DNA of 63,334 nucleotides from Candidatus Kaiserbacteria bacterium (GCA_963813065.1 CAWEXP010000002.1:1-63334), one strand, 5' to 3'; counted from the first letter of the stretch, positions 5,726-63,130 are shown. Numbers and translations: made by a program. The notes: generated by a model not told the origin, from the sequence alone.

Positions 5726-5776
5726 CGGCTACTCCTCTTTTTCTATCCTGCGGAATCCTAGCACACCTTCTTCTAG

Positions 5777-7772: not shown

Positions 7773-7794
7773 TTTCTCGATTATACTCGCTTGT

Positions 7795-9560: not shown

Positions 9561-9963
9561 GGGGGTGACCGGCTTTGACGGTCTGTACGTTGAAATCGCG
9601 CGACGCAGTGCATGCTCGACTGCCACTCTAATCCTCTCGAGCACCAAACTTGCCAAGAACACCTTTGCAAGCGTGATGTCGCCGTACTTCGGTGCGGCTG
9701 ACTTCGCGTTCGTCTACGCGTAACCCTTACGGGTCTTCGCCTAGCGACGTCTTCCCTCTCCCGGCGCTCACAGCGCGAGGGCGGGCGGAATTATCTGTGA
9801 GATCGGCGACGAGCTTTCCGCCTCGTTTGCCTAAATAAGGAATCGGATAGGAATGGTTTCGTCGATGTTCCTCGCATCCTATCTTAAAACTAACGTCGAC
9901 TATGCGTCGTAGAAGCGCTTCAACTACCAGATTCGGACGTGGGTCCAATTCCCACCATCTCCA
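9561..9963 (+). ncRNA. ssrA: tmRNA
   Basis: 5' GGGGGTGACCGGCTTTGAC; 3' T-arm GTGGG-TCCAATT-CCCAC and CATCTCC-A with G3.U70; internal tag ORF 9652..9723. Confidence 0.93.
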
Positions 9964-9979
9964 CAACAGTAAACACCTG

Positions 9980-30876: not shown

Positions 30877-32533
30877 TCAATGTTTCTTCTTTTGTGCGAT
30901 GGCGGCCTTGAGGAACTCGGTAAAGAGGGGGTGCGGCGCCAAGGGGCGCGCCTGGAGCTCGGGGTGGAATTGCGTCCCAAGCATGAAGGGGTGCGCCGTG
31001 CGTGGGAGCTCGGCGATTTCCATCAGGACAGAATCGGGTGAGGTGCCGGAGAAGACGAGACCAGCCTCTTCGAGCTTAGGAATGTATGCTGGATTAATCT
31101 CGTAGCGATGGCGATGACGCTCTTCAACTAATTCTTTTTTGTATGCACTGCGCGCAATCGTCCCTTTTTTCAAATAACAGGGGTACGCGCCGAGACGCAT
31201 CGTGCCGCCGTACTTATTGTCGGCGATATGTTTCTTCTGCTCAAGCATCACATCCACCACGGGATTCGTCGTATTTTTATTTATTTCGGTGGTGTGTGCG
31301 TCTTTCAATTTCAACACATTGCGTGCGTACTCGATAACCATGAGTTGCATGCCGTAGCAGAGGCCGAAGTACGGGATCTTGTGCTCGCGCGCAAATTGGA
31401 TTGCCTTCAACTTCCCCTCGATACCACTCTCGCCGAAGCCACCGGGCACGAGGATGCCCGCGAATTTCCCCAGCATCGCGACTTTGGCTTTGTTAGTTTC
31501 AAAGTGTTTTGAATTGATCCACGTAATCTTGGCGCGGCGGCCAAGTGCAGCGGCAGAAAACTTAATCGCCTCGATGACCGAGAGGTACGCGTCGGAGAGT
31601 ACGAAGTCGCCCGTATCAAAATATTTCCCGACGATGGCGATTTCGACCTCGAGTGCTTTGGTATCGGTCGCCGCTTTGACAAATTTCCCCCACGCCGCGA
31701 GCGAACGCCTTGTGTGTCTGTGGCAGGTGGAGCGCATCGAGGAGATTCTCGGCGAGCTTGTCCTTCTCATAATTCAGCGGCGCCTCGTAGATACTCTTGA
31801 TATCCGGCGCGGAGATAACGCGATCCTTGCGCACGTTGCACCAGATTGCGAGTTTCTCTTTACGCTTCTCATCCACGGGCTCCTTGCTTCGTGCGACGAT
31901 GAAGTCCGGCTGGACGCCATAGCTGTTGAGATCGCGGACTGCCGTCTGGGTCGGCTTCGTCTTCATCTCGCCGAGGGTGCCCGGCGTCGGCAAGTACGAG
32001 ACCATCACGAAGAGCACGTCCTCGGGCCTCTGCATCTTCATCACCCGCCCCGCTTCGATGAAGAGCGCATTCTGAAAGTCGCCGACTGTCCCGCCAATCT
32101 CGATGACCGAGATGCGACTGCCGGCGACCTGCGCGGCTTTCTCGATCCGCGTTAGGATTTCATCGCGAATATGCGGAATAGCTTCGACGCATCGACCTTT
32201 GTACTCGAGTGCACGTTCACGTGCGATAACCGCCTGATAGACCATGCCGCTCGTCATGTAGTCGTCTGGCGTCAGGTCGCGCCCGAGGAAGCGTTCGTAG
32301 TTGCCCATGTCCTGATCTGTTTCCAATCCAGACCGAAGCACAAAAACTTCGCCGTGCTCGGTCGGATTCATTGTCCCCGCATCAACATTGAGGTAGGGAT
32401 CAATCTTCACGAGGTTCACCGGATAGCCTTTTTGTTGCAGTAAGAGGCCCATAGAACTGGCAACGACGCCCTTGCCGACGCCGCTCATCACCCCGCCCAC
32501 GACGAATATATATTTGTGTCCGTCCTTCGGCAT
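30877..32533 (-). CDS. pyrG: CTP synthase (one frameshift near 31730)
   Basis: GGVMSGVGKG, DPYLNVDAGTM, KTKPTQ; GATase GLCYGMQ, RHRHRYE, QFHPE, split over two ORFs. Confidence 0.95.
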
Positions 32534-36801: not shown

Positions 36802-38630
<1,829 letters not shown>

Positions 38631-46657: not shown

Positions 46658-47674
46658 TTATTTCGTTTCAGACCGATTCAAGAACAGGAGCTCGTCGGCG
46701 AGTTCGAGCATACGTTCACGTCCAATCAAGACCGACTGCCACTCCTGCGGGATGCCGCCGAGGCCGTAGCGTGCGCCGAGCAATCCGCCAGCAATCGCGC
46801 CATAGGTATCGGTATCGCCGCCGACCATGATTGCTTTGGTGAGACCATCGCGGAAATTGCCTGAGGTGAGTACCGCCCAGAGCGCGATACGCAAAGAGAG
46901 GATCACACTGCCGGTGTTGGGCCAGATTTCCTCTTCGCGCGGCTCGGAGGGTTCTATCGAGAGCACCGCCTCGAAACCCGGGCGCAGAGGGCCGTCCGGT
47001 GTCTTCTTCTCGAACTCGAGCAAGTCGCCCATCTTCCAACGCGTGGCGAACCACGCATCGACCGGTGATAAACCGGCAAGAAGATGATTGAGCATGACGG
47101 AGTACGCCATGCACGCCGCTTGCGCAGAGGGGTGCACATGCGTGATGCATGAGTGCCGTCGCGCAATGTCGACTATCTTGTCCAAGTCGCCGTAGTACCG
47201 CACGGGGACGGACGAACAGCACATCAAGCTCCCATTGCTCGGTATCACCGGCACGCGACCTTCGCGGAATACGATGAACGAATCGGCGTAGGTCGGCGCA
47301 CGAAGAGAAGCACGTAATGTCCCTCCTGAACCGTAGGCCTTCCCATTGGTCAAGAGCGAGCGACGCGGTTCGCCATTGTGGCCGTGAATGAATCCGCGTT
47401 TGCGGTGGTACATATCAACCGGGTCAAACTCGGGCGTCGACGCCAGACTCTCGGCGCCCCCGGCAGTCAATTCGGAATCATCGGTCGGTTGGCCAGCAGT
47501 GACGTACCGTTTCCATTTGAACGGCTCGAGATAATCGAAGGCGACGAGGCCACCACGGAATGCCATATTGGCCTCGATGGCGACACGGTGACGCGTCTCG
47601 TAGGGGGCGCCCAGCACATCGCCAGTGAGCGCGCCAACGAGCACGCCGCGAGCACTATTTTCAGTCAGAACCAT
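46658..47674 (-). CDS. ADP-ribosylglycohydrolase (DraG/ARH family)
   Basis: GDVLG, PTDDS, SNGSLM, ITH, GGDTDTYGAIAGGLLGA. Confidence 0.92.
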   Translation of the reverse strand: MVLTENSARGVLVGALTGDVLGAPYETRHRVAIEANMAFRGGLVAFDYLEPFKWKRYVTAGQPTDDSELTAGGAESLASTPEFDPVDMYHRKRGFIHGHNGEPRRSLLTNGKAYGSGGTLRASLRAPTYADSFIVFREGRVPVIPSNGSLMCCSSVPVRYYGDLDKIVDIARRHSCITHVHPSAQAACMAYSVMLNHLLAGLSPVDAWFATRWKMGDLLEFEKKTPDGPLRPGFEAVLSIEPSEPREEEIWPNTGSVILSLRIALWAVLTSGNFRDGLTKAIMVGGDTDTYGAIAGGLLGARYGLGGIPQEWQSVLIGRERMLELADELLFLNRSETK

Positions 47675-47683
47675 ATGTTTCTC

Positions 47684-47759
47684 CAAAGAACTGTTTTCCT
47701 TTAAGGACGTTCGACTCATTCGAGCGCCCTAGAAAAGGAGGTTTCCCTAAGGAAACCTC
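47684..47759 (-). repeat. Structured intergenic leader, copy B (before the ADP-ribosylglycohydrolase)
   Basis: Hairpin GAGGTTTCC-TTAG-GGAAACCTC plus ~54 bp closely similar to 46576-46628. Confidence 0.75.
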
Positions 47760-47787
47760 GAGTTGAAAGATCTAAGAACCCAGCGGC

Positions 47788-48600
47788 TTACGGCGTACCG
47801 AAGCCACCCATTGCAGTCTGACTGAACGCTTTGCCGCCCTGGCTCGCCCGCACCGCGGACTGCGAGAGCATGCCGAACGCTTTCCGGATGCCGGACGGCG
47901 AACTGTCGGGCGTGAGAATCCAGTCGTCCTGGATGCCCATGCTCTTGAATACCGCCGTGAAGTCGGTACCCTTGCGGATGATCCTTCCTTGGGCGTCTTT
48001 CTGGCTGTCGTCGATGCCCATACCGCTGATGATATGAGACTCGCTCATGAGCAGATCTCGCACGACCTTCTCGACGTCGGTCTCGTCGCACTTGTACGAG
48101 CCCTCGTCATGACCGTCGGTAATGATGCACGAGACGCCGCGACATGGAATACCGTTGTCGCGGAACTCTTGAGCCTTCGCCGCCACCGTCGCCAGGAACA
48201 AAACACCTTGGTCGTAGAGCGGCGTACCGCCGTTCGGATTATAATTCTGCGGCGTCATCCGCGGAGCGTCCTTGATGCGCACATACGGACAGAGGATCGT
48301 TCCGTTTAGGTAAGGGACATGGACGAGGATACTGTCTCGCTGTTTGGTCGCGAGCAGAGCATCCAGAATCCCGTTATAACCATCGCGGATATGTTGCGAA
48401 TTATTCCCGAACCTGATGGACGTAGAGTCGTCGACCAGGAGTGAGAACAACGTAACTTCACTGGACTGCACGTCTTCGGGCGAGATACCGAGTCCCGCCT
48501 GAATCTGCGCACCAAGATCTTCGACATCGACGACCGCCTGCGCTTGCGCACCGAGTGCACCGTTGGTGAAGAGACCTTGCACTGTTTGGGAGTTACCCAT
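47788..48600 (-). CDS. von Willebrand factor A (TerY-like) domain protein
   Basis: MIDAS motif DDSTS, GGTPLYD, ITDG. Confidence 0.8.
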   Translation of the reverse strand: MGNSQTVQGLFTNGALGAQAQAVVDVEDLGAQIQAGLGISPEDVQSSEVTLFSLLVDDSTSIRFGNNSQHIRDGYNGILDALLATKQRDSILVHVPYLNGTILCPYVRIKDAPRMTPQNYNPNGGTPLYDQGVLFLATVAAKAQEFRDNGIPCRGVSCIITDGHDEGSYKCDETDVEKVVRDLLMSESHIISGMGIDDSQKDAQGRIIRKGTDFTAVFKSMGIQDDWILTPDSSPSGIRKAFGMLSQSAVRASQGGKAFSQTAMGGFGTP

Positions 48601-48674
48601 GAACGTAATCCTTTCTAAGAGAAGTTGCAGGCGGCCGACCATCGGCCGCCTGCGTACACACGTGAGACACAAAC

Positions 48675-49730
48675 TTAGAGCTCAATGCCGGGCCATTCCT
48701 GGATCGGCGTCGTGCTCTTGACCACATGCATGCCGGCGTTTGCGAAGCTCGCGAGTGCCGCCTCCGCTTGTGGCGTGTAGTCGGCATAGAAACCGCCCTT
48801 GCCGTCGGGAACCGTCACCGAAGACATGCAGTCTTCCATGAGGTACACCTTCTCGGCAAGCTTCGGATCCTTCGCACTGATTTCCGCAAGCAGATCTTCG
48901 ATGGTGCTCTTGTCGCAGTGACTCGCCGCTTCTCCCTCGATGATGAGGTAGTCGGCCTCTAGAAGGTCGTTGATGAACCGCACGTTCTTCTGCGCGAGCG
49001 GCTTACCGTCCCAGCGGGTCAAGACTTCCGGCCGCAGGACCGAGTAGTTCTCGGTAAGCGGATGTCCGCCCTTGACCTCGCAGTCGGTCTGCGCCCCGCG
49101 AGCGAACGCGTGGAACATCCGTGCTTCGTGGAGGATGCCGACTAGTGCGTGACCCGCAGAGCCCAAGATGCAGTGAGGAGGCCAAACATAGAGCTTGTAT
49201 TTGCCCTCACGTTCGAGTTCACGGCAGTAGTGGAGCAGGTGTTGGCCGAGCCACAGGTAGTCGATGCCAAGCGCCGAGGCGACCAACATCGAAACTTGAA
49301 CGCGTCGCCGTTCTACATCTGCGACTGACACTTCTGTGTAGGCCGGCACCGGCGTCCCGTCGTCGTAGACCAAGAAGGCTGAGAAGAAGATCTGGTACGC
49401 GAAGTGCGTATCAAACGTAGCTTTGGTCTTGGTGATGATGCCCAGATTGCGATAGATGAACTCGGCGCTTCTGCGCGAGTCGTCAATCGCACCTTCGCCT
49501 GAACGTCCACCGACGTAGAGCGCACCACGCTTCATACAGAAGTCTTTCTGTCGATCGATGCTCAGCAGATAGACTTTCTTGCGGTCAGTCGAAGAGGCTT
49601 TGAGACCAAACCGCTTCCTCCAATCGAGAGCGGCGGCGAACAACGCTGCCTGGTTGGGATCGTAGTCCCAGTCTCCCGCATGCTTCGGATCGAAGAACGT
49701 GGGGAGTGGTAGTGCAGTCTTCGTAGTCAT
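48675..49730 (-). CDS. Nicotinamidase-like cysteine hydrolase (isochorismatase family)
   Basis: IDRQKDF, GALYV, DTH, WPPHC..GSAGH, VKG, ASHC. Confidence 0.85.
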   Translation of the reverse strand: MTTKTALPLPTFFDPKHAGDWDYDPNQAALFAAALDWRKRFGLKASSTDRKKVYLLSIDRQKDFCMKRGALYVGGRSGEGAIDDSRRSAEFIYRNLGIITKTKATFDTHFAYQIFFSAFLVYDDGTPVPAYTEVSVADVERRRVQVSMLVASALGIDYLWLGQHLLHYCRELEREGKYKLYVWPPHCILGSAGHALVGILHEARMFHAFARGAQTDCEVKGGHPLTENYSVLRPEVLTRWDGKPLAQKNVRFINDLLEADYLIIEGEAASHCDKSTIEDLLAEISAKDPKLAEKVYLMEDCMSSVTVPDGKGGFYADYTPQAEAALASFANAGMHVVKSTTPIQEWPGIEL

Positions 49731-49763
49731 GGTCTTTCCTTCCATGGTCGTGACCAGGATTGG

Positions 49764-51647
49764 TCATTTAAGAACGAGACGCCAGATATCGTGTTTACCG
49801 GCTACGTACAATCCCTTGTTGCCAAGGAATATGCGTGAGTCGGTATCCACGAACTGTGCGGTCGCGGGAAATTCTTTCACGACATTCAATTGAGTGCCGC
49901 CGAGTTCCACTCGGACGACACCATCGTCAGTCGCAGAAAGTAACAATCCGCCTGCCGCACACTTTCCTCGGATACTTCCGAGCCAACTGCCGTCTCCGGC
50001 GGTTGTCTCATGGCTCCCGAGATACACACCGTTGCCGTCGAGCACGTGGCAACGGTTTATTGTTTTGCCACCTTCACTCGTGGCGACAAAAAACCAAATT
50101 CGATCACTTCCGAAACAACACGTCGCGTCGACGAGTTGGCCGCGAATCGGCGGGAGAGTAACCGAATCATTGAGACCGGGATGGTTCGTATCGAACGCGA
50201 AGAAGACCGAAATCTCTCCTGCCCGATAGAAACCGAAGCCATGCTTCTCGCCGACCCAAAAGAGAGTCTGCGAGTTCAGCACGTCTCCCCAGCGCTCGGC
50301 ATAGTCAAAGCCGAGTTTGCCCACGCGCCACAAACCACCTCCGCGCGCGAAGAACACATTGGTACTATTCGCGTCGAAGATTGGTAAGAGCCCGCGGACA
50401 TCGGTCGAGAGTCGCTGGGTACCACCAGCATCGAACTGCACCGTCTGATCGGCACGCCCCAGGAGCGTTTTCGTACCGCTGATGCGGTAGCGAAGTTGCG
50501 CATCGAGAGCGCCCGCGATGATAGTGGCACCGCTCTCGCGCTTATACGAACCGTTGTCGTGATAGAGGTAACGAATCGTATCGCCTTCGAGAACTGCATA
50601 GAGAATCACACCGTCGGTATAGAACTCCTTGAAGGCGCTCACGCCTCCCGTGTGGATTTCCTTATGCATGGGCGGAGTGATCGTGGTGCACGAGGGACAC
50701 GAGGTCCGTGCATGCACCGCACCACATTTCGTGCAAGTGGTGAAGCGAAGATTTTCGATGAGTGCACGCGGTGGAATGCCGCGCTCATCCTTCTCGAACG
50801 TCCTTCGGAAGTGTTCCAGAAGAGTATCCGGCAATATATGATACGGCCGTGACGACTTCGGGCATTTCACTTCCGGATTGAAGATCGTGACTCGCTTGAG
50901 CGAGCGTCCGTCATACGGAATCCGCTTCTTCGGGTCCTTGGGGTTATGAACACCACCGTAGGGTCCGACCAGAAGTAGATTCTGCATGAGCATAACGTTG
51001 AACGCATACCAGTCAGAATTCGCGGTATGCGGTCTCACGAGAGTTGGCGTCTTCGCATTCGGATCGCAATTGAGCGGATCCACGAACTTCATCGTGAATG
51101 TCCGCGATAGGTACGGTCCGAACCCACCGCTATCGGCATCGATGATCCACGCCTTCCGGTCCTTTATAAGAACGTTCAGGTCGTTGAAGTCACTGATGAC
51201 GAAGTGCGATGAGTGGCGATGAGCCTCTTCGACGGTCTTGTGCAGGTCCACCAGCGTCTCGACGACGAAATCGTCGGGAATGCCGGTGTCGCGAAAGCTT
51301 TTCTCGCCATAGAGGTACAACACTTCACCCGAAACGAGTTCCATGCGATACCCGGCGATATTTCCTTTTGCGTCGAGCACCAAATCACGCGGGGATACCA
51401 CGCGAGCAGGAAGCCCGCGGGGAAAGTCGCGCAATTTCTTCTGATGTTCGGCGATGCGCTCTTTCGCCGCGGCGCGCGCCGCAATATCTTCCGGCCGAGT
51501 GCCGGCAAAATCTGCGTGCGTGGGCGGCTTGAAGATTTTGATGGCGAAACCGCCATCCTTGAAGATGTCTGCTTCGCCACCCTTCCCGACTGCGTCGTCG
51601 GGCCGTAGCCGAAGACGTTCTCCGTTTTCGAGGAAGTAATCAGGCAT
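49764..51647 (-). CDS. Ser/Thr protein kinase-like protein with Zn-ribbon and beta-rich C-terminal domain
   Basis: GKGGEADIF, AIKIF, ISDFNDLNVL, IIDADS; CTKC..CPSC. Confidence 0.85.
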   Translation of the reverse strand: MPDYFLENGERLRLRPDDAVGKGGEADIFKDGGFAIKIFKPPTHADFAGTRPEDIAARAAAKERIAEHQKKLRDFPRGLPARVVSPRDLVLDAKGNIAGYRMELVSGEVLYLYGEKSFRDTGIPDDFVVETLVDLHKTVEEAHRHSSHFVISDFNDLNVLIKDRKAWIIDADSGGFGPYLSRTFTMKFVDPLNCDPNAKTPTLVRPHTANSDWYAFNVMLMQNLLLVGPYGGVHNPKDPKKRIPYDGRSLKRVTIFNPEVKCPKSSRPYHILPDTLLEHFRRTFEKDERGIPPRALIENLRFTTCTKCGAVHARTSCPSCTTITPPMHKEIHTGGVSAFKEFYTDGVILYAVLEGDTIRYLYHDNGSYKRESGATIIAGALDAQLRYRISGTKTLLGRADQTVQFDAGGTQRLSTDVRGLLPIFDANSTNVFFARGGGLWRVGKLGFDYAERWGDVLNSQTLFWVGEKHGFGFYRAGEISVFFAFDTNHPGLNDSVTLPPIRGQLVDATCCFGSDRIWFFVATSEGGKTINRCHVLDGNGVYLGSHETTAGDGSWLGSIRGKCAAGGLLLSATDDGVVRVELGGTQLNVVKEFPATAQFVDTDSRIFLGNKGLYVAGKHDIWRLVLK

Positions 51648-52490
51648 TGGCAACTCCTTCAGTTTTCGGCGTGCGCCGAATGGCAACAAGTGTGGTGTCG
51701 TCCCTGAAGAGTCCGCGCTTGATGCGGCCCTGCTCCACCGTCTCGCAATTACTCATCGCGAGTCTGCGACGTATGCCGTCTTCGTTCCGGAAGAAAAAAT
51801 CATTTTCCCGAGAACTGACTGAGTGGACCGACCGGCTTGTGGCCGATCGGCATCGGGAGCGTCTCTGCCTGGATAAGGTCAGAAACGCCATCCGTACCAA
51901 TAAGGATTGACTGCACGTCTTTCGTATCGCGCACGAGGTTCGCGACAAACGAAGGCTTCTCGCCAGACTTGCGCGGCGCCAGGTTGTAGCCGAGATAGGG
52001 CGGCTCGTTCCCTGGGTAAGGACCCAAGGTAGTTACCGCACCATTCACCGCATACACACCATCGCCACACGAGAAAATGAGCTGTGGTGTGCGGCGTCAC
52101 TATGACGCCGATCGTCGAGAAGAAGAATTGCTCCTCCATAACGAAACCAGTATCGCCTCCGACGCTTTTCGCAATGAGTGAGATGCGGTCCAGAGGAACC
52201 TCTGTAAGCCATTCGAGGAATGCGCTAGCCGAGGTTTCTTGGATGCCGAGATTTTGAACGACCGGCACGTTGAGGAACCTCGCCGCTTCGTTTACGATGA
52301 TCCGTGCCCCGAGTGTCGCACCCACTTCGCTGTGCGAATGGCTCGAACAGCCGTCCGTTACCACAGCGACGAGGTGCGTAGGTGAGGCATGCCACCAAAG
52401 TGAGTCTTGATTGTTTTTCCAACCGGACTCGCCCGGCATGATGTGATCCATTCCCGGCACCGAGGCGCCGGCAATTTGGAATCCATCCAT
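51640..52490 (-). CDS. PP2C-like protein phosphatase (frameshifts near 52080 and 51825)
   Basis: NNQD, VTDGCS, CGDG, IGTDG and DDTT across three frames; its stop overlaps the kinase start (ATGCCTGA). Confidence 0.8.
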
Positions 52491-52614
52491 AACCTTCTCC
52501 TTTTCTAACTTTGCAATGGGTATGGGTCCTCTCAAAGAACCTCTCGACCCAAGGTCAAGATTCCCTACTTTTAACAAATGGATGACGTTTCGTCAATCTC
52601 ATGCTCTAGGCTAC

Positions 52615-53189: not shown

Positions 53190-53229
53190 CGCGAGAGACG
53201 GGACTTGAACCCGCAACCTCCGCCGTGAC
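53190..53229 (-). pseudogene. Orphan 3' half of a tRNA-Asp (from anticodon GTC to discriminator)
   Basis: GTC-AC-GGCGG-AGGTT-GCGGG-TTCAAGT-CCCGT-CTCTCGC-G. Confidence 0.85.
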
Positions 53230-53258
53230 CAACGTAACTTAGGTTTTCTTAACTAATG

Positions 53259-53330
53259 CGCGGGTGACGAGTGCTGACCTCGCGACCTTCGCCGTGACAG
53301 GGCGACGCTCTACCGTTGAGCTACACCCGC
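53259..53330 (-). tRNA. tRNA-Asp(GTC) with non-canonical T-loop
   Basis: Acceptor GCGGGTG/CACCCGC, G73, anticodon arm TCGCC-CTGTCAC-GGCGA, T-arm GCGAG-GTCAGCA-CTCGT. Confidence 0.85.
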
Positions 53331-53331
53331 A

Positions 53332-54012
53332 TTAATTGTCAAGTCGTAAGACTTTCAGCGCTCGTTCTAATTTTCTACGTTTCCGCGGCAGATATAGATT
53401 CGAGGCAAAGCCAGTATGATACATCAGATGATAAAGCGCAACGCTGTCTCTATGGCTCAAGACCAACTCAAATCCTCTTGTTTTTCGCTTGATTGATCCG
53501 CCCCGGACTCCGTGAAGTGTTAGTGCGTGATGTAGGGATTCTAAAAACCCTAGCGAACCGCTCGTAAAGAGGCTCATGAGTATCCAACGTTTTCCCTTTC
53601 GATCGGCAAATTGTAATTTGTTGAAGTACGCGCATCCATCACCATCAAAGTAACCGCGCACGAAATCTCCAAGAAACTGAGCCGGAACTTTAGGAAAACG
53701 CAAGGTATTACTCTTATGTTGAGTAAAGCCCAGTCGAGCTAAATCAGCAAACCATTTTTTGCTTCCGATTTGTAAGCGGTATGCGGTCTTTCGGTTGTCG
53801 CCGCGTTCTCGCGCCGCGATGTGATGACTCGATGTTGTGGCCCGCTGTATGACTTCGAGCACTATTCGATCGGTACTGGTGAACTCAATAAAACATCCGC
53901 CACGACGGTTCTTTAACATTGAGCCGTCCGCGGCGAAGAATCCAAGTACGTACGCCATTTCGGGTGACCATTTCTTGAAGAAGTCCCGATTGAGTGTGCA
54001 ACGCTGTGACAT
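53332..54012 (-). CDS. Double-motif LAGLIDADG homing endonuclease (intact)
   Basis: MAYVLGFFAADGS and FVRGYFDGDGC; stop lies 1 nt before tRNA-Asp. Confidence 0.92.
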   Translation of the reverse strand: MSQRCTLNRDFFKKWSPEMAYVLGFFAADGSMLKNRRGGCFIEFTSTDRIVLEVIQRATTSSHHIAARERGDNRKTAYRLQIGSKKWFADLARLGFTQHKSNTLRFPKVPAQFLGDFVRGYFDGDGCAYFNKLQFADRKGKRWILMSLFTSGSLGFLESLHHALTLHGVRGGSIKRKTRGFELVLSHRDSVALYHLMYHTGFASNLYLPRKRRKLERALKVLRLDN

Positions 54013-54025
54013 AGCTCAATTCTAA

Positions 54026-54063
54026 GACAGGACTTAACTCTAACCAAACTTTACCCACAACCC
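54026..54063 (-). pseudogene. Decayed 5' half of a tRNA-Asp
   Basis: AGTTTGGTTAGAG (D-loop) and C-CT-GTC (anticodon) lie at exact tRNA spacing (positions 14-36); the stems are degenerate. Confidence 0.5.
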
Positions 54064-54071
54064 TACCTTGT

Positions 54072-54148
54072 TGGTGCCGGCACCAGGAGTTGCACCTGGG
54101 ACCTCAGCTTTATGAATGCTGTGCTCTAACTAACTGAGCTATGCCGGC
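54072..54148 (-). tRNA. tRNA-Met(CAT), elongator type
   Basis: Acceptor GCCGGCA/TGCCGGC (paired G1-C72), loop TTCATAA, encoded CCA, T-loop TGCAACT. Ile2 identity is not excluded. Confidence 0.85.
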
Positions 54149-54188
54149 GAAGTGAGGCCCTTGCACAGTAGCAGATTGTACGGGTAGT

Positions 54189-55133
54189 TCAACGGTACTC
54201 GAGCAAGTAGAACCCGGTGATGGCGAAAAAGGTAATGGTGCCCCGCGGACGTGCATAGGCCACGCGATCTCTCTTGCTATGGAAGCGTAGGTTAGAAAAT
54301 ATCTCGCCGTTGAGGAAATTCGGATTACTCCAGCCGACGATAGTCTGAGCGATGACGACGGGCCAGTACTTAAAGCCATCGAACTCGAAATGCCGTTTCG
54401 AGAGTGCGACGATCACCTCGTCCAGCCGCTTCTGCTGATGCGGCGCGAGATGGTGGCGGAAAAGCGAATGGTAGACCACATCGAAGTATGCGGGGGAGAA
54501 ACTGCTTTCAAGGTCGAAAATATCATTCGTGCACATGACGATGAGCACTTTTTGCGGAGTCTTCGCTCGTAGCTCGGCAATATCCTTTTCCGTCACCTTC
54601 CCCGTCTCGACGATTGCGACGTCTGCCCCGAGGCTCTCGAGATTTTTCCGCGCGATCTTCCGCGTAATCGGCGAATTATCGACCGCGACGATGGTCACCT
54701 TGAAAGGGTGTGCTCGGCCAATGGCCCACTGCGCAACTTGTCGGTCGACCTCCATACCGCCCGCGCCGAAATTTGCGATAACCAGATCGCGCTTCTGTAC
54801 GTCGATATAGCGAGTGATGGCGTTGACGAGAGGTGTGATAAGCCCCGGCCGCGGCTGTCGCTCCATCTCGATGAGTCGCGTATGCATCGCGATATCCCAT
54901 TCCTCGACGGGAAAATCCGTGAGCTCGAGGAGCTTTGCACCGTCGAGTTTTGGGGCGGTGGCAACAAGCCACCACACGTACTGGGGGAAGGAGCGGGTGG
55001 CGCGGAGGAATTCAATATTCGCGTCGATCGCGTATCGCTTGTCCGTATACGCAGGATCACTTTTGAACTGCTCCAGTTTCTCCAGTGCCTTCTCTATGCC
55101 TTCTCTCCGCGTCATAGTGCCAGTATAGCCCAT
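54189..55133 (-). CDS. Class I SAM-dependent methyltransferase-like protein
   Basis: IANFGAGG, VAVDNS, NDIFDL, FDVVYHSLFRHH. Confidence 0.7.
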   Translation of the reverse strand: MGYTGTMTRREGIEKALEKLEQFKSDPAYTDKRYAIDANIEFLRATRSFPQYVWWLVATAPKLDGAKLLELTDFPVEEWDIAMHTRLIEMERQPRPGLITPLVNAITRYIDVQKRDLVIANFGAGGMEVDRQVAQWAIGRAHPFKVTIVAVDNSPITRKIARKNLESLGADVAIVETGKVTEKDIAELRAKTPQKVLIVMCTNDIFDLESSFSPAYFDVVYHSLFRHHLAPHQQKRLDEVIVALSKRHFEFDGFKYWPVVIAQTIVGWSNPNFLNGEIFSNLRFHSKRDRVAYARPRGTITFFAITGFYLLEYR

Positions 55134-55135
55134 CG

Positions 55136-56749
55136 CTACTGGGGGAACTCAACGATAAAGGTCGAGCCCTTTCCCTCCCCCTCGCTCTCGGCACGGATGG
55201 TGCCCTTGTGCGCCTCGACGATTGACTTGGCGATGAAGAGGCCGTAACCAGTGGAGTGCACGTTGATTGATTGCGAATTCTTGCCGTGTCCGCCCTCGGT
55301 GAAGAGGCGCTTCTTGTCCTCGTCAGTGATACCGACACCCGTGTCCTTGACCGCAAATAGTATCTTTCCACTCTCTTTCTTCAGCGTGACGTCGATACTG
55401 CCGGTCGGCGTGTAGTTGATCGAGTTCTCGATAAGATTGCGGAATACGTGCTCGCCAATCTCCTTCTGGTCGCCCGTGAAGGTATAGGGCGCGCCGGCCG
55501 CGTCGCACGTGTACGAAAGCGCCAATTTTTTCTGGGCAGCAGAAGGCTTCTCCTTCTCGACGGCATCGGTCGCGACTGCCGCGAGGTCGAAGGGTGCCAC
55601 GAGGAAGGTGGTCGTGCCTTTCTTGAGATTCGATGCTTTGAGAATATTCATGACGCTCTCGGCGCCGGCGCGCGTCTGGGCGAGCGCCGACACGAGAAAA
55701 GGCTGGAGCGTACCGGGCACCGGGCAGAAGTCGCCTTCGAGGATGGCGGCGAAGGCGCTCTGATCTTTGGTCAGATAGCCCTTGACCTCGTGCGTGACGA
55801 ACCGCATCAGCACTTCCTGGCGTTCGTTGGTCTCGGCGAGCTCATCGGCGAGCTGTTGAATCTTCTCGCGCTGCTGGACCTCGCGCACCACGCTCCCGAT
55901 GAGCAGGTAACTGAAGACAAGCACAAGAATAAAAATAGCGACGCGGAACACGAGCTGTGTGACGCTCGTTGCCATCACAATTTCAAGCAGGGTAACACCG
56001 GAGAGTGCCGCCGAGAGGAATTCGGTAGCGATGACCTTCACCTGCAAGAGTCGATGCTTGATAATCGCGTACGCGGTCAGAATGATGTACGGGAAGGTGA
56101 AGAGTCCCGCAAGCGGGGCGAGTTCGGCATGGTTAAGCAGTGCCGGAAACACAAAGTTGAACACGATGATGAGCGTGTACGTGATCGTCGCGCCCGTGAA
56201 AATAAAAAGGTACGGAACCCGCAACTCTTTTTGCGCCAAGAATATCTTGCGCAAGAAGAGGCCGAGGCCTGCCGCGGGAAGCGCAAAGGTCGTGAGGCCG
56301 AAGAGCGCTATCGCCGGACCATTCGCCACTTCCGCCACTGCGCCCGCGGAGAAACCAACCACCGCAATGAACACCAGCGGCGTCAGCGTCGTGAGTGCGA
56401 CAATCGCGGTGAACGGGATGAGCGCATACCGATACCAGCGCGGGAATGCAATCTTCTCTTCGGGGAACACGTAGAAGAGCTGGAACGCGTAGAACGCATG
56501 CACAACCGCGAAGAATACGGCCGCACGCAGAGTCCAGATAATGGCCATGGGATCCGTGAGCCGGAACATGATGAGATTCAACATGCCCCACGCGATGACC
56601 GAGGCCGCCGCGAGAAGGAAGCTTATATTTGTGATGCTCTTACGATTGTTCAGGTACGCGACAAGCCCTAGAGTGCCGTCGCCAATAGCGACGAGACCCA
56701 TCAGAATGATGTCGAGATTCGGAATGCCGAAGAGATTATGTACGTCCAT
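55136..56749 (-). CDS. Sensor histidine kinase with N-terminal 7TM (HisKA_7TM-like) domain
   Basis: About eight TM helices; H-box VTHEVKGYL, NLIENSINYT, DTGVGI, GYGLFIA. Confidence 0.92.
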   Translation of the reverse strand: MDVHNLFGIPNLDIILMGLVAIGDGTLGLVAYLNNRKSITNISFLLAAASVIAWGMLNLIMFRLTDPMAIIWTLRAAVFFAVVHAFYAFQLFYVFPEEKIAFPRWYRYALIPFTAIVALTTLTPLVFIAVVGFSAGAVAEVANGPAIALFGLTTFALPAAGLGLFLRKIFLAQKELRVPYLFIFTGATITYTLIIVFNFVFPALLNHAELAPLAGLFTFPYIILTAYAIIKHRLLQVKVIATEFLSAALSGVTLLEIVMATSVTQLVFRVAIFILVLVFSYLLIGSVVREVQQREKIQQLADELAETNERQEVLMRFVTHEVKGYLTKDQSAFAAILEGDFCPVPGTLQPFLVSALAQTRAGAESVMNILKASNLKKGTTTFLVAPFDLAAVATDAVEKEKPSAAQKKLALSYTCDAAGAPYTFTGDQKEIGEHVFRNLIENSINYTPTGSIDVTLKKESGKILFAVKDTGVGITDEDKKRLFTEGGHGKNSQSINVHSTGYGLFIAKSIVEAHKGTIRAESEGEGKGSTFIVEFPQ

Positions 56750-57807
56750 ATTCGATAGTCGGCTGTTTCTTAGAGGAGTACGCGCTCGGCGCACTCGCGT
56801 GTCCGATGCGGAATGCCGCGACGAGACTCCCCTTCCCGGGAAGGGCCGTGCGTAAAGTGTCGCAGGCGCGCATAATTTCCTTTTCTTGGGCCGCAGTAAA
56901 AGGATGCGTTGGCTCTTCACGCACATACTGTTCGAGATAGAGCATGCCCATGAGTGGCTGGAGCGCGAGCCCGGCACGCGTTGCGCGCAGCCAGACTTGT
57001 TCGAGGATACGCCCGGCGCCGATGAGATGTTCGGGCGTTATGCTCGAAACCCAGATACCACCCACCAGCCCACAGGCGGCATAGCGCGCCCGATTCTGCG
57101 CGGCCACTACTGAGCCGAATCCGAGTCCGCCGAGAAAGCGTGCAAATCCCCACGAAGCAAAGAGCGGAAAAAGAAGTCGCGCTGGAGGATCGAGCTCGAA
57201 GGTGTTGATGTAGAGACCCGATTTCTTTTCATGCTCTTCTGCTTCTGACCAGACGATGTGCGGGAAGAGCGAATTATGGACACGGTTTGCATTGAAAATG
57301 AGGCGATCGTTTACGCTCCACGCACGCGCAATAGTATCAATCGTCGTGCGGTCGGGAGCCAGGACCAGAGTTCCCTCGTTCTGCAGATATGCGGGGAGTG
57401 TGGCAACCGCTCGCTGTTCCTCTGGCGGAAGCGGCGCAGTCGCATAGGCTTTGCGATTGGTGGCGCGGCGACTCATACTCGCGAGCAGCTCTCTCGCCTC
57501 GGCAGTATCAGCTACTGATGGCGTGAAGTCGATACGCGCAACGCCACGCGTGTGCGGCTCGGGTAGAAGCGAGACCGTGGCGGAGAATCCCTGCGCGGCA
57601 GAGGCGATGACGATATTCTCGATGAGTGCACCGAGCGCGATATAGGAGCCGCGCTGTTTGAAGTTGTAGACGGTTGAGTCGCTCTCGGGCACTGAGACAG
57701 ACGATGAGTGATTCTCCCTCGATACGGAACTTCCACGGTTGATAATTGTGTCCGGAAGGCGCTTGGATGGCGACCGCGAGTATCTCTTGGATAAGGTCAG
57801 TATTCAT
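56736..57807 (-). CDS. Nitroreductase-family (Acg-like) protein (frameshift near 57705)
   Basis: QAPSGHNYQPWKF, RRATNR, GRILEQVWLRATRAGLALQP, FRIG. Confidence 0.8.
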
Positions 57808-59223
57808 GAAGCCAGTATAACGCGTGGTTTCTTGCCCGTAATCTGCAGGAGCGAGCGCTCTGCGCCACTCTTTTCGTTGCGAGTGGGTAGCATGCCCTTG
57901 GGATATAGGCGCACCACCGGCAGGGCGGCATCGCCTATTTCTTTGTGCAGTTTCCTGAATTCGGTGTTGAGCTCAGAAAGCGCGAGGGTCAAGTCATGCG
58001 CGGCCTTCTCTGCGAGCCCATCACTGGGCTCTCTCCCCTCTTGGAGCTCGAGATCGACGATGAGTTGTTCCGAATGCACTCCAGGGCGTTGTTCCGTCGA
58101 GACCAGGTACGAACCGGTCGACATATCTTTCGAGATGCCCGCGGTAATCTGCTCTGGATAAATATTGAGTGCGTAGAGGGTGACGGCGACATCAGTCCGG
58201 CCCGTAATCGAAACGAGTGGGAGCGGGTGTGCCCGCGCGCCCGAGTCGACCGCCGTCCACGAGATCAGCGAGCGACTCGGGCGTATAGACACCTCCTCTG
58301 TCGTGAATGTTGTACCGCACGAGCGGAATCGGCATTCGCTTGGTGATGAGGAGCTCGCCGCCATGCTCTTCGACATACATAAGATCAGGAAGAAATTGAT
58401 AGAGACCGCCGAGCCGCGATGCATCAGGGAAAAGTTGTTCAGCGAGGCTCGCATTCGTTCGCGCGGCGCGGCGGAGCGCAATCGTAAACGGCGTTTCAAA
58501 TGCCATCGCCCCCGCGTCAGCAGAGCCATAGACACCGATGATGCGACTGTAGGCGGTGGGATGCCCAATGAGTCCCGCGACTTCTTCGCGCCATTCCTCA
58601 GAAAATTTATCGCCTGAGGTGAGCAGGAAGACCGACGGCGGTACCTCTGCAGGATTGTGAAAAGCTTCTCGGAGAAAATCGAGTACGAACGGCGGATAGC
58701 CGGCGATGACCACATGCTTAAAAAGTGGCGCAAGGCGCGCAAGCACCGCGAGCCCTTCAATCTTATCAATGCCCGGCGTCGCAATCGTAACGGCAAAACC
58801 GCGCTTGCGGAGCGCTCGACACGCATCAGCGGTGAAGAGTCCTGCAACCCAGAGACCCATCGAAAACGTGACGAGTACCAAGGTCGGCTCGCCGCGCTTG
58901 ATGCCATAGACATGTTCGAAGAGGTATTCGTGCAGGTCAGTGCCGCCCACGAGCGACTGCTCGTCGCGGAACCACACCGATATCTTGCCCGACGAGCCAG
59001 AACTCGCGTACGCGACTTCGCCGCGGTCACCATGCATGAGCAACTCCTCCGGCGCGTAACGCTGAGAGAAATCGTTTTTAGTGGTTATCGGCAAGTCACA
59101 GAAACTGCGCGGAGTGACGCGCCACGGTATCTTGCCCAATTTCTCCTTTACGAAAGCTCGGTAGGCGGGCGACGCGCGCAGTGCCTCATTGACGAATCGG
59201 AGAATGGACTTGGTCGGCTTCAT
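57804..59223 (-). CDS. Phenylacetate-CoA ligase (PaaK)-like adenylate-forming enzyme (frameshift near 58195)
   Basis: LPITTK, ASSGSSG (P-loop), GYPPF, TSGDKF, YGSADAG, PLVRYNIHD, GRTD. Confidence 0.85.
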
Positions 59224-60319
59224 CAGCGACTACGGAGTTTTTCCATAAATTCGTGCACGGACTCTTTTCGCTGTGCTTTTTTTTTCAGAGTCGTAGGTGA
59301 GGTCAAACAGTTGTTCGAGGGTGAACGTATAACGACCCGAAGCGAGCGGTTCTTTGGCAAGAATGGTCCGCACCGCATAGGCGATGGCGGTGCCTGCGAA
59401 CGTCGCCGACGCACCGAGCTGAGGCACCGAGGGAATCGTCGAACCAATTTCGAGAATGGAATTGCGCATCCGCTCGTCGAGGAATTCGGGACCGACAATG
59501 CGCGTCGCGAGTGCGAGCCAATCGCGGAAGGTGAGCTTCTGCAACTCGTCTGGATTCGTCTCGGGGATAAGTCCGTGGAAGAGCGGGCGTTCGGGCTCTA
59601 GATCGAAGCGCTCAACATCGAGGATAACGCCATTGCCGTTGTCAGTGGCCATGAGCACGGGAATCCCTTCTCTGCGCGCGATGAGACGCATACGAATTTT
59701 CTGATCGATGGCTTCCATTTCGTCGATGGCAACGTCAACGCGAGGATTAAGCAAGAACCGTTCTATGTTGTCGTCGCGCACACCCTGATCAAAGGTTTCT
59801 ATCTCGGCATAGGGATCGAGCTCCCAGACGTTGCGGGCGGCGACGGTGGTCTTTTCTTCGCCGACATCAAGCAGAGTCGCGCGCAGACGATTGAGATTCG
59901 TAATCGCGACGACATCGAGATCAGCAATCTTTATATGTCGCGGACCGCCCGAGAGTGTCAGGGTATGCAAGACGGCAGAACCGACCGAGAGACCAGCGAG
60001 TGCGATACTGCCGGCACGGAAGGCGCGCTGTTCGTCCTCAGTAATGACATGCTTATTGCGCGCCGTGCGGAGCTCGAAGTATTCCGCCTCGGGGAGCTGT
60101 CTCGACCACCGTGTTCGCCCAGGGATAATGAATGTAGACCGACGGAATGGTGCTCTCGACGATAAATTTTTTCTGCTCGGCGAGATATTCGGGCGTCCCC
60201 TTCTTCCCCGCAGGATGCCGGACCGAATAGAGTTCTTCGAGCGCACTCGCACGCGCATCCACCCGAGACGCGCCCGCGGGTACCTCGCTCTGGTTGGTGT
60301 AAATGAGCGGATGTTCCAT
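59223..60319 (-). CDS. ThiF/MoeB-like adenylyltransferase (Rv1355c/MoeY-like; frameshifts near 60095 and 59280)
   Basis: VHYPW-like YIHYPW, LRTARNK, AGLSVGS, ADLD...TNLNR, DEME, DVERFDLEP..PLFHG, PQLG. Confidence 0.82.
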
Positions 60320-60326
60320 GGTGGGA

Positions 60327-61900
60327 TTATTCGAGCGCGAGCGCCGCGTCGCTCTTAAGTGCGGCCACGAGCGCATTAAGCTCTCGAGTAGAGGAACGGT
60401 CTTCGATAAGTACCGGCACGATGGCCCGCACGTGCTGATACAGCATATGCGAATCATCGGAAGAAGACGATCTTCAACCTTCTTGATATCGACCGCCTGC
60501 GCGAGCGCAATGAGCTCGATGGCGAGGACAATGAAGGCGTTCTTCATAACGGTGCTCGCGATGAGTGCCGCATCGGTGCCCATCGACACGACATCCTGAT
60601 TATCGCCATTGGTAGAAATCGAGTGGAGCGAATGCGGATACGCGAGCGACTGACTGTGCGCGGTTGTCGAGGTCGCCACGAACTGCATGCCCTGGAGCGC
60701 GAGCGTGAGGCCCGGCTGATTCATATTCAAGAACGGTGGGAATTCCTGATTCACGTTCTTGTTGAGGAAAAAATTACTGCGGCGCTCTGAGAGAATGGTC
60801 GTCTTCACCATCGCCATCTTGAGATGATCAGCGGCGACCGCCATATACTCGCCATGGAAATTGCCACCGTGCAGAAACATTTTGCCTTCGAGATCGACGA
60901 TGGGATTGTCGGTCACAGAAATCAAGCTCCGTGGTGATGTCGTCTGCGGCATTCCGGACCGCATCGAACACCGGCCCGAGAATCTCCGGATGCAACGGAA
61001 CGAGTAGACCTCCTGAATGTGTTCCGGGGTGACATCGTCGCAGACGTCACATCAACACGCGACTGGAGCTCGCTCCAATCGGTCATGAGCTTGGAGGTTT
61101 TGAAAATGTTGCGCAGGAGGCGGCAACCGCCTTCTGACCAGGATGTGGCCGGACAGCATGGAGCGGCTCCGAGTAGGCATCGCTTAAGCCGTTCATGAGC
61201 TCGACCGCGAGCGCACCCGAGCGCACCGCGAGCGCGAGCAATTGTTCGGCATCGCGCACGAGCAGTGCATTGATGCCGGTCATCACTGCGGTGCCGTTAA
61301 TCAGTGCGAGACCCTCTTTCGGTTCAAGAACTCTTGGTTTGATGGAGAGCTCGGCGAGTACCTCTTCCGTTGGTCGACGTACGCCCTGATAGAAGACTTC
61401 GCCTTCGCCAATCAGTGCGAGTGCGATATGCGCGAGCTCGACCAGGTCGCCACTTCGTCCCCACCGCACCATGCTCAGGTATGATCGGGATAATGCGTCG
61501 ATTAATGAACGTGGCGAGCAGAGTCGTGAGTTCCTCCGAGACACCGGAGTTCCCCTTCAAGAAGGTGTTAGGCGACAGAGCGTCGCCGCGAGTAGGACTG
61601 CGGATAATCGGGTCTCCGGCACCAGTCGCGTGGCTCCGCACAAGATTCCGCTGGAGAGCGGCGGAATCATCCTTGCCGATAATGTGAGAGGCCATGGGCC
61701 CAAACCCAGTCGTGATGCCGTAAATCACCTTGCCGGACGCTTCAGCATCGACGAATGCTTTGCTCGCGCGCACGTTCTGGAGTGATTCTTCGGCTAGCTC
61801 GACCTGCATCGACGCATCGTTGACGAATGCATACACGTGGGCCGGGTAAGAGATGCCCGTCTAACTTCAGAGATTCTCCCCTACCGGATTCAGTGTTCAT
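60327..61900 (-). CDS. MIO-dependent aromatic amino acid ammonia-lyase (HAL/PAL/TAL family; several frameshifts)
   Basis: IYGITTGFG, NLVRSHATGAG, G-T-S-G-D-L (MIO motif across a frameshift), KEGLALINGT, YSFRC, DNPIV, GGNFHG, NQDVVSMG. Confidence 0.88.
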
Positions 61901-61966: not shown

Positions 61967-63130
61967 TTATTGTCCGCCCACCTTCGAGATTTGTGCGAGG
62001 ACTTGCGCGAGCTCTGCTTCCAGCGACTGCGCCTCGCTCTGGAGCTGGGCCAGTGTCATGGTCGAAAGTGTGCTGGCAGAAACGGTCGGTGTCGCGGTGG
62101 TATTCGTGAGCTGGTTCAGTGCCGAACGCGTCGTGGGGCCGACGACGCCGAGTTGGGACAAGCCGTGCGCCGCCTGAAACTTGATCACCGCCGCCTTGGT
62201 CGAGGGGCCGAAATAGCCGTTTGGGGTGACCGTGAGGTATCCCTGTTGGGCAAGGACCTGTTGGAGCGCTTTGACCTGCGCATCTTCTGAGCCAGGTTTC
62301 AAGTACTCGGTGAAGGTCGCCGCAGGAGCGCTTACGACGGGCGTCGGCACAATGGTTGGTGTTGGCGTCGGTGTTACAACGGGTGTCGGAGTCAGGCTGG
62401 TACTCGTCCCACCATTGATACTGATGGTGAGAACGGTGCAACCGCCGCCCGAGGAGCAAACATTGACCGAGGTCGCGCCGGTCGCGATGCCGTAGACGGT
62501 CAGGGTGCTATTGCTGATGGTCTCCTGCGCGACGGCAGTGTTGCCGCCGGTGATGAAGTAGGGCGGCGTACCGCCATTAATAGCAATGTTGGTGTTCTGC
62601 CCCGAGAGGAGCGAGAGCGAATTCTGGCCGAGGCTGATGTTGGTGCCCGTGGCGACCGTATTCACGGTCACGGTGAGCGAATTGCAGGTGCCGGTCGACG
62701 CACAGACCGAGACCGTCGAAGAACCGGAGGTGATACCGGTCAAAGTCAGCACCGCACCCGAGAGATTCGCCTGCACGACGCTCGGGTTGGAATTACTCGA
62801 GACATAGAAGGTGGTGCCAGACGGACCGTAGATATTGACCGTCGTATTCTGCCCCATTCCGACAACGGGCGCCGCGGTGCTGAAGGTGAGGGAGACCGAG
62901 CTCGCCGAGCCCGCGGTCGCGACGACGACACCGCAGGCGGCGTTATCGGTCGAACAGATGGTGATGGTCGATGAACCAATCGAGGCGCCGGTCGAAGAGG
63001 GTCAGGACCGAGCTGTTGATGCTCGCCTGGATCACGCTCGCGTTCGAATTATTCACGATCGTGAATGAGCCATTGCCACCGCTCATCGTGATTGGCAAGT
63101 TCTGCCCCGTGACCACCGAGGCCGTGGTAT
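61967..63130 (-). CDS. Surface protein with repeated Ig-like modules and a peptidoglycan-binding domain (5' end missing, frameshifted)
   Basis: LKPGSEDAQVKALQQVL..GYL...GYFGPST..AV..FQ...G.VGP.TR (PG_binding_1); Thr/Ser-rich repeats and a PT linker. Confidence 0.75.

Follow-up and report, generated by a model that had tools for sequence, protein, structure and literature searches.

A six-gene Kaiserbacteria operon that may couple oxazolone-type biosynthesis to a membrane histidine kinase

We analyzed a 63,334-base contig of a Candidatus Kaiserbacteria bacterium (GCA_963813065.1, CAWEXP010000002.1:1-63334; "the window" below means this whole contig) and describe here a six-gene operon that is read on its minus strand from position 61900 to 54189. 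On balance, we favor the reading that the operon makes a small heterocycle that derives from amino acids and belongs to the oxazolone (azlactone) class or the dehydro-N-acyl-amino-acid class, and that this is coupled to a dedicated membrane histidine kinase encoded in the same unit. The biosynthetic module, taken by itself, is probably of the oxazolone type: two of its proteins resemble the two halves of enzymes that cyclize and desaturate N-acyl amino acids, and their genes recur together with those for an adenylate-forming ligase and the kinase in many related loci.

Results and Discussion

The operon and its genes

The six open reading frames (ORFs) follow one another with spacings of at most 7 nt or with overlaps.

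61900-60327, minus strand: aromatic amino-acid ammonia-lyase of the 4-methylideneimidazole-5-one (MIO) type, predicted to be tyrosine-type (Pfam Lyase_aromatic, in three ORF pieces)
60319-59230, minus strand: ThiF-like ATP-dependent cyclase (N-terminal half of NCBIfam NF005901; Pfam ThiF)
59223-57804, minus strand: PaaK-family adenylate-forming ligase (motifs and AlphaFold2/Foldseek; no Pfam match)
57807-56736, minus strand: nitroreductase-fold flavin-dependent oxidase, Acg-like (C-terminal half of NF005901; NF047509)
56749-55136, minus strand: polytopic histidine kinase, probably of the HisKA_7TM type, 537 aa, intact (HATPase_c, H-box, N, G1 and G2 boxes)
55133-54189, minus strand: class-I S-adenosylmethionine methyltransferase-like enzyme, 314 aa, intact, accessory (weak Methyltransf_11 and Methyltransf_25 matches; NF004851)

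The TAA of the lyase gene is followed by 7 nt and the ATG of the ThiF gene, and the TAG of the latter (59232-59230) by 6 nt and the ligase ATG at 59223; ligase and oxidase genes share an ATGA overlap (57804-57807), those of oxidase and kinase overlap by 14 nt (56736-56749), and 2 nt separate the kinase TAG from the methyltransferase ATG. A first-pass annotation had described six closely spaced or overlapping genes on one strand and had named their domains; the junctions read from the sequence and the Pfam and NCBIfam searches bear out both descriptions, including the two overlaps, but the "TGATG" that it placed at 59223 is not the stop of the ThiF gene. A scan for promoters and terminators within the operon found nothing exceeding shuffled expectation. 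The operon region is chromosomal, and the contig also carries a tmRNA, six tRNAs, bipA, glmS, pyrG and NAD salvage genes.

For the comparison with relatives, 80 genome loci and the contexts of individual homologues were scored with the window proteins, which gave 87 loci with the ligase, mostly from Patescibacteria. The arrangement of the six genes is far beyond chance, and the gene set recurs in these 87 related loci.

Two predicted halves of an oxazolone synthase

Judged by homology, the ThiF-like protein and the nitroreductase-fold oxidase appear to be the split halves of a single enzyme family, that of the TrzS/Rv1355c oxazolone synthases. The former matches NF005901 ("Rv1355c family") with an E value of 9.7e-89 and 298.5 bits over model positions 39-353 of 722, N-terminal extension included, the second-best ThiF family reaching 1.4e-19; the latter matches the remainder of the same model, positions 374-713 of 722, with 3.4e-47 and 161.1 bits, and the Acg family NF047509 with 7.6e-41. 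The two genes lie in one operon with the ligase gene between them, and in 72 of the 87 relatives the oxidase gene lies within 8 kb. Among solved structures, the closest to the ThiF-like protein is TcdA, itself an oxazolone-forming dehydratase, with the nucleotide-binding loop and the DxD, NxNR and ID motifs aligned (AGLSVGS, ADLDVVAITNLNR and AIDEME of the window protein with GIGGVGS, IDMDDVCVTNTNR and VIDAID of TcdA), and the closest to the oxidase is Acg (2YMV).

TrzS (Rv1355c) converts N-acyl tryptophan to N-acyl tryptazolone with ATP and O2, and the separate proteins TyzB and TyzC and the fused OxzB carry out the same reaction on N-acyl tyrosine or phenylalanine, and TrzS, TyzBC and OxzB have been demonstrated in biochemical work to cyclize N-acyl aromatic amino acids and to desaturate them (PMC12856293, PMC10404671, bioRxiv 10.1101/2020.06.11.147165). 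The first-pass annotation had recognized the ThiF protein but overlooked that it and the nitroreductase match the two halves of one Rv1355c/TrzS family; the cinnamoyl- or coumaroyl-type coenzyme A (CoA) thioesters that it had proposed are, given this split TrzS/Rv1355c pair, probably not the end product.

A ligase proposed to stand in for an acyltransferase

The ligase gave no match in the Pfam search, and its PaaK matches are weak (22.7 and 20.2 bits against cut-offs of 700, for the haloarchaeal PaaK model, and 646). The motifs conserved in the family alignment (SSGSSGKP, YGSADAG, RYNxHDxG, GRTDV and GKKPR) are those of adenylate-forming enzymes, and the AlphaFold2 model (predicted local distance difference test score 86.6) indicates a PaaK-type adenylate-forming fold. 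The best Foldseek matches of the model are PaaK and BT_0428, accompanied by NatL2, AjiA1 and ClxA and, more distantly, by the GH3 and McbA amide synthetases. Against 4R1L and 2Y4O the E values are about 1e-20 and the template-modeling (TM) scores 0.62-0.64; across PaaK and the NatL2/AjiA1/ClxA group they span 6e-21 to 1e-14 and 0.5-0.64, at sequence identities of only 17-20%. With the family profile searched against structures, the best E value is 2.6e-12 (PaaK2, 2Y4O); for the chains of NatL2 and AjiA1 it is no better than about 1e-3. NatL2, AjiA1 and ClxA, enzymes of benzoxazole biosynthesis, are precedents in the PaaK family for coupling an adenylated aromatic acid to another molecule with no need for CoA, in their case on the route to a ring of the oxazole type. 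The family comprises at least 852 clusters at 50% identity (E at most 1e-30), whose named members are almost all from Patescibacteria, and elsewhere it occurs in natural fusions: a Glu/Leu/Phe/Val (ELFV) dehydrogenase-ligase-ThiF protein of 1242 aa, a ThiF-ligase protein of 880 aa and a ligase-ThiF protein of 863 aa (P0242, P0153, P0227).

To our knowledge, an N-acyltransferase starts every known oxazolone pathway. The operon has no N-acyl amino acid synthase (NAS) of the OxzA/TyzA/TrzA type, and among the 84 loci scanned no acyltransferase family recurs, the recurring extras being a receiver domain and a second type of nitroreductase. Because just this step is missing, and because of the obligate adjacency, the natural fusions and the structural relatives of the ligase, we propose it as the N-acyl-amino-acid-forming enzyme, which most likely replaces the absent N-acyltransferase. 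Of the earlier label "CoA ligase", the adenylating ligase stands; the protein is a remote member of the PaaK family to which this substitute role would fall. Classical PaaK catabolism was rejected as its function, the scores lying far below the curated cut-offs and paa genes being found in none of the loci.

Conservation across related loci

Among the 87 loci, the ligase is accompanied by ThiF in 78 (90%), by the oxidase in 72 (83%) and by the seven-transmembrane (7TM) kinase in 68 (78%), and further by the lyase in 36 (41%), a stand-alone receiver in 32 (37%) and the methyltransferase in 6 (7%). Where the flanks are complete, with at least 6 kb on either side of the locus (n = 41), the counts are 39 for ThiF (95%), 37 each for oxidase and kinase (90%), 20 for the lyase and 17 for the receiver. 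The lyase and the methyltransferase are thus accessory. The biosynthetic genes come in at least 10 orders, and through all of them the kinase gene shares the strand of the others and closes the cluster (65 of 65 loci). Relatives carry full-length versions of the genes, for example L001/L007 with a lyase of 524 aa, ThiF of 369, ligase of 469, oxidase of 352 and kinase of 545. The synteny search across the Candidate Phyla Radiation (CPR) and other phyla that the first-pass annotation had suggested therefore finds a conserved unit, and a cluster that had been called unexpected in a minimal organism turns out to be widespread in Patescibacteria.

Four parcubacterial loci (L001, L002, L089 and L091) have the cluster in one and the same slot, between grpE-dnaK-dnaJ and trpS, tRNA-synt_2 (a class-II tRNA synthetase) or scpA-scpB; the common slot with a differing first enzyme, lyase or aminotransferase, suggests vertical inheritance with swapping of modules. 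A search started from the kinase N-terminus returned only 13 homologues, word-index limits applying to membrane sequence, and of the three contexts examined two were cut by contig ends; the sole informative one (L092) is the same cluster again, in the order oxidase, ThiF, ligase, M19 dipeptidase, kinase and receiver. The Peptidase_M19 gene of that locus (7757-8698), from the family of the renal "dehydropeptidase", stands between ligase and kinase, a suggestive place given that amides of dehydro-amino acids are the predicted products.

The probable acyl precursor and a putative tailoring enzyme

The three pieces of the lyase cover positions 12-448 of the 466 of Pfam Lyase_aromatic. Once joined, they match best the NCBIfam model of the FlxA tyrosine ammonia-lyase (525.6 bits, cut-off 700; positions 12-497 of 498), the score against hutH being 394 bits, below its cut-off of 539. 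Intact orthologues carry the MIO triad as GAVG-TSG-DL or sometimes G-ASG-DL, with a His at the substrate-selectivity site; in the window lyase, a frame change cuts through the triad, which reads T-SGDL (the hyphen marking the change) if one A is dropped at about 61458. The window lyase and all close orthologues also have NQD(V/I)VSMG and not the NQED (QED) of histidases. The FlxA match, the selectivity His and the NQD motif favor a tyrosine-type lyase (or mutase) over a histidase, and an identity as histidase, with urocanate as the product, was rejected on the NQD motif and the family scores.

In some other loci the place of the lyase is taken by an ELFV dehydrogenase or an aminotransferase, every identified first gene encoding a deaminating enzyme. 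As such an enzyme often precedes the ligase, the acyl group probably comes from an amino acid and not from fatty acyl-CoA. All 70 source-named homologues of the methyltransferase are labeled Patescibacteria, and a homologue stands directly before the 7TM kinase, beside ThiF and oxidase, in L087, L088, L089, L037, L039, L049 and L074.

The kinase and what it may sense

The catalytic domain of the kinase is clear (HATPase_c, E 2.4e-22). Its HisKA_7TM match is weak, with 17.7 bits against the Pfam gathering threshold of 28.6, and PF16927 is recorded in orthologues and homologues. The first ~290 residues are hydrophobic, forming seven, possibly nine, segments with many conserved positions and no large extracytoplasmic domain; the protein has an H-box His together with N, G1 and G2 boxes, and THEVKGYL aligns with SHQLRxP of the orthologues. 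The first-pass annotation had pictured a circuit that makes and senses a small molecule, and of this the co-conservation of the kinase stands (68 of 87 loci, 37 of 41 with complete flanks, always last and on the same strand), as in synthase-receptor pairs. That the kinase is functionally tied to the biosynthetic module we hold with good confidence; its sensing of the product of the neighboring enzymes, which we read from the co-conservation, is a tentative proposal. Likewise, a response regulator had been noted as lacking, which holds for this contig; a stand-alone receiver, however, lies beside the cluster in 37% of relatives. In Yanofskybacteria-type relatives (L005, 13972-17353, and L022; about six loci), the neighborhood consists, in this order, of the kinase, a single-domain receiver, a fusion of a receiver with T2SSE (pilus ATPase) and a T2SSF platform gene, a hint that type IV pili may be the output.

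The product could instead be an effector, such as a pigment, an antioxidant, a membrane lipid-like compound or an antimicrobial, with the kinase responding to another cue (host, envelope or redox) and being co-regulated with the operon or controlling it. The relatives from outside Patescibacteria (Gordonia, Streptomyces, Saprospiraceae and Chloroflexia) fit this, as they have ligase-ThiF without the kinase and the chemistry is therefore independent of it; oxazolones are, moreover, known to accumulate intracellularly, their role not being established, and the related N-acyl tyrosines are antimicrobial (PMC12856293). Yet the kinase gene follows the enzymes in every one of the 65 loci while the genes upstream shuffle, and a kinase with this fixed position and with no large extracytoplasmic domain suits the sensing of a hydrophobic, self-made ligand within the membrane, as in CqsS and LuxN. 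We consider an effector with an unrelated sensor possible and rather unlikely. Sensing of the product within the membrane is tentatively favored because the position of the kinase is invariant and a large external domain is missing, in resemblance to CqsA/CqsS and LuxM/LuxN.

Frameshifts and the question of gene decay

The lyase gene has nine frame changes (near 61845, 61603, 61569, 61458, 61118, 61050, 60990, 60920 and 60464), and the genes for ThiF (near 60100), ligase (near 58246) and nitroreductase (near 57690) have one each; the frames of the kinase and methyltransferase genes are intact. A crude codon-model Viterbi served only for picking the candidates, which were then checked with Pfam. 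Were these changes real, a point that the first-pass annotation had wanted resolved first, the lyase and perhaps the whole operon would be a decaying pseudogene cluster in this organism. Three observations lend this some weight: at least 10 indels fall in the 1.57 kb of the lyase against none in the 2.6 kb of kinase and methyltransferase, they lie outside homopolymers, and the lyase is dispensable, being missing from 59% of related clusters.

Data from other sequencing runs point the other way. Outside the frameshift sites, the short contigs of one soil metagenome run (X1), from a near-identical population, are the same as the window; at these sites they have extra bases after 60987, after 61035 and, two of them, near 61596-61605. 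In X3, a run that is more distant, base 60919 is missing and an extra G follows 60987. Together, X1 and X3 restore the lyase frame at five sites (60919, 60987, 61035, ~61596 and ~61605), and the X1 edits alone merge three lyase segments into one open frame. A lake run with a more distant relative (X2) lacks base 58246, which brings the ligase into frame. The ratio of indels to substitutions against X1 is about 1:1 and the joined lyase has no internal stop, both unlike natural decay, and it still reaches 525 bits against the curated family. Indel errors are, furthermore, found elsewhere on the contig, since the essential genes glmS (36802-38630, plus strand; GATase_6, SIS and SIS, each in a frame of its own) and pyrG (30877-32533, minus strand; CTP_synth_N and GATase in two frames) are also broken; a PP2C-like phosphatase gene (51800-52577, minus strand), just downstream of a 641-aa ORF, is probably split as well, into two frames near 52060-52085. 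The clean region of kinase and methyltransferase, 53200-56669, has a counterpart with 100% identity in an independent contig of another run, as would fit a partly polished assembly. As other runs restore the frames, glmS and pyrG are broken and the joined lyase is free of stops, the frameshifts are most likely assembly errors and decay of the operon is improbable.

Remaining alternatives and points against our reading

The ThiF-like protein could also activate the C-terminus of a protein or peptide in the manner of an E1, as in RiPP (ribosomally made, post-translationally modified peptide) or ubiquitin-like systems, with the oxidase acting on the peptide and the ligase adding an aromatic acyl cap. 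ThiF with a nitroreductase-fold dehydrogenase is indeed found in azole-peptide systems too, which counts for this, as do weak PADLOC matches to E1-E2 (E ~1e-6) and the fact that proteins, peptides or tRNA are the substrates of most characterized ThiF-like enzymes (PMC12596934). The match is nevertheless specific to the small-molecule TrzS family (1e-89, where other ThiF families reach 1e-19 at best), and neither a conserved small ORF nor a YcaO, E2 or JAB partner recurs among the loci, so that we regard an E1 role as quite improbable. A defense system was rejected separately, the PADLOC scan having given only weak generic E1 and ATPase matches. Finally, a catabolic or salvage route, from tyrosine through coumarate to a CoA thioester with the kinase sensing the substrate, would agree with the known phenylpropanoid and phenylacetate routes, which a lyase and an aryl-acid ligase open, and with the label "phenylacetate-CoA ligase" that JGI gives to the ligase family, but is very improbable given that hydratase, thiolase and ring-opening genes occur in none of the loci, that the ligase reaches 22.7 bits where the haloarchaeal PaaK model has a cut-off of 700, and that the lyase is missing from most clusters, ThiF and oxidase being nearly universal.

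Several observations weigh against an oxazolone-type pathway coupled to the kinase. The operon lacks the N-acyltransferase by which known oxazolone clusters are defined, and that the ligase forms an amide is a prediction. The 298.5 and 161.1 bits of the separate halves both fall below the 476-bit cut-off for the fused protein, and we therefore treat them as relatives of the NF005901 family, not as equivalogs. With 59% of related clusters lacking the lyase, the acyl donor is uncertain, and the dehydrogenases and aminotransferases yield 2-oxo acids, which are unusual substrates for ligases. The H-box of the window kinase, HEVKGYL, departs from the HQLRxP consensus of its orthologues, and a tblastn search across the 63-kb contig found no receiver domain or response regulator. 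The lyase, lastly, has a far higher load of indels than the remainder of the window, which is not fully explained.

Proposed pathway

With these points in mind, the following route would account for the gene set. From its family and residues, the MIO lyase is predicted to deaminate an aromatic amino acid, most likely tyrosine, to an arylacrylic acid such as p-coumarate. The ligase would adenylate this acid and attach it to an amino acid through the amino group of the latter, giving an N-acyl amino acid with neither CoA nor an N-acyltransferase. By homology to TrzS, TyzB and OxzB, the ThiF-like enzyme would then adenylate the carboxylate and close the oxazolone ring, and the nitroreductase-fold flavoenzyme, by homology to TrzS and TyzC, would desaturate C-alpha to C-beta with O2; the methyltransferase may tailor the product. 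The kinase, going by its co-conservation, would most likely detect the hydrophobic product in the membrane and signal via a stand-alone receiver, which is encoded beside the cluster in about a third of relatives and is not on this contig. On these predicted substrates and the predicted amide step, the simplest product of the window operon would be an oxazolone derived from an N-(p-coumaroyl)-aromatic amino acid, or its ring-opened dehydro form.

Carried to its conclusion, this would give Patescibacteria a self-contained circuit, in which an oxazolone or dehydro-N-acyl amino acid, made from amino acids only, with neither CoA nor fatty acids, is sensed within the membrane by their own 7TM kinase and acts via a single-domain receiver on cell-surface machinery; the complete circuit is a speculative possibility that we hold to be doubtful as a whole. 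In a wilder variant, the conjugated product may be a chromophore or a covalent ligand of the kinase.

Neighboring features of the contig

Upstream of the operon (61967-62857, minus strand) is a gene whose product, a repeat protein rich in Thr and Ser, has a PG_binding_1 domain and weakly matches a pilus N-terminal region; in relatives, this slot usually holds dnaJ and a membrane ORF of 160-170 aa. Directly downstream, within 53258-54148 (minus strand), a free-standing LAGLIDADG_3 homing-endonuclease-like ORF (53332-54012) is flanked by tRNA-Asp (53258-53330) and tRNA-Met (54072-54148), a layout shared with the independent contig L090. Farther away, the region 46658-49745 (minus strand) has an ADP-ribosylglycohydrolase gene (46658-47719) and then two ORFs (294 and 356 aa) that lack a Pfam match, which adjoin the kinase-like 641-aa ORF (49764-51689; protein-kinase-like N-terminus, no Pfam match) and may be another signaling or toxin-related module. 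The contig also has a tRNA-Ile with the anticodon TAT (5776-5849, minus strand), uncommon in bacteria, most of which read AUA by a modified CAT tRNA, and a full-length tmRNA gene (9561-9966, plus strand; Rfam RF00023, 79 bits) that ARAGORN did not report.

Significance

The discoverers of the oxazolones call their physiological role a major unresolved question and suggest signaling (PMC12856293; bioRxiv 10.1101/2020.06.11.147165). A kinase gene that lies beside the biosynthetic genes in 78% of loci, and in 90% of those with complete flanks, provides a concrete candidate for an oxazolone receptor and makes the question of their role testable. If the complete circuit is real, it would supply the first oxazolone receptor and, for these episymbiotic bacteria, the first endogenous system of small-molecule signaling. 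The cluster also suggests communication by small molecules in Patescibacteria, whose mechanisms of host recognition are little understood, and it proposes a function for at least 850 clusters of unannotated "phenylacetate-CoA ligase-like" proteins. A CoA-independent route from amino acids only would, we propose, suit organisms without lipid and cofactor synthesis. In the literature, we found no paper in which oxazolone genes are connected with Patescibacteria/CPR, with a ligase of the PaaK family or with a histidine kinase, and a search of the CPR quorum-sensing survey (PMC7567580) and of the Southlakia genetics paper (PMC10633639) turned up no prior description.

Comparison with known systems

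[quoted passage not shown] They differ in having the OxzA/TyzA/TrzA acyltransferase where the window has a PaaK-family ligase, which elsewhere is sometimes fused to ThiF, and in using fatty acyl-CoA, whereas clusters of the window type often begin with a deaminating enzyme; the 7TM histidine kinase is a part of the window unit, and the hosts are Patescibacteria as against Proteobacteria and Actinomycetota. The N-acyl dehydrotyrosine clusters of stieleriacine and of thalassotalic and kyonggic acid consist of NasY, a methyltransferase, ThiF and a nitroreductase (PMC12479983). The last three enzymes are likewise found together in the window, whose end product may by analogy be the ring-opened dehydro form; those clusters, however, use a NAS acyltransferase and fatty acyl donors and have no kinase.

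For the separate components, further parallels exist. PaaK, NatL2, AjiA1 and ClxA have their fold and adenylation motifs in common with the modeled window ligase, at the low identity given above. Tyrosine ammonia-lyase with p-coumarate ligase, which makes the chromophore of photoactive yellow protein (PYP), and FlxA of flexirubin biosynthesis resemble the window in pairing a tyrosine-type MIO lyase with an acid-activating ligase, but in the window that ligase is of the PaaK family and not of the 4-coumarate-CoA ligase type, there is no PYP/PAS domain and there are no polyketide genes, and the lyase scores 525 bits against the cut-off of 700. In CqsA/CqsS, LuxM/LuxN and AgrBD/AgrC, the genes for signal synthesis lie directly beside a multi-pass kinase with no large external domain. 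The window shares this adjacency of genes with such synthase-receptor pairs, although its kinase has no sequence relationship to theirs, and the output partner of kinases of its type is, in relatives, a single-domain receiver that is absent here. Because the NAS acyltransferase is missing and the NF005901 scores are below equivalog level, the cluster is better seen as a variant than as a member of the oxazolone or N-acyl-dehydro-amino-acid clusters; it looks like an oxazolone pathway in which a ligase has taken the place of the acyltransferase and to which a membrane kinase belongs.

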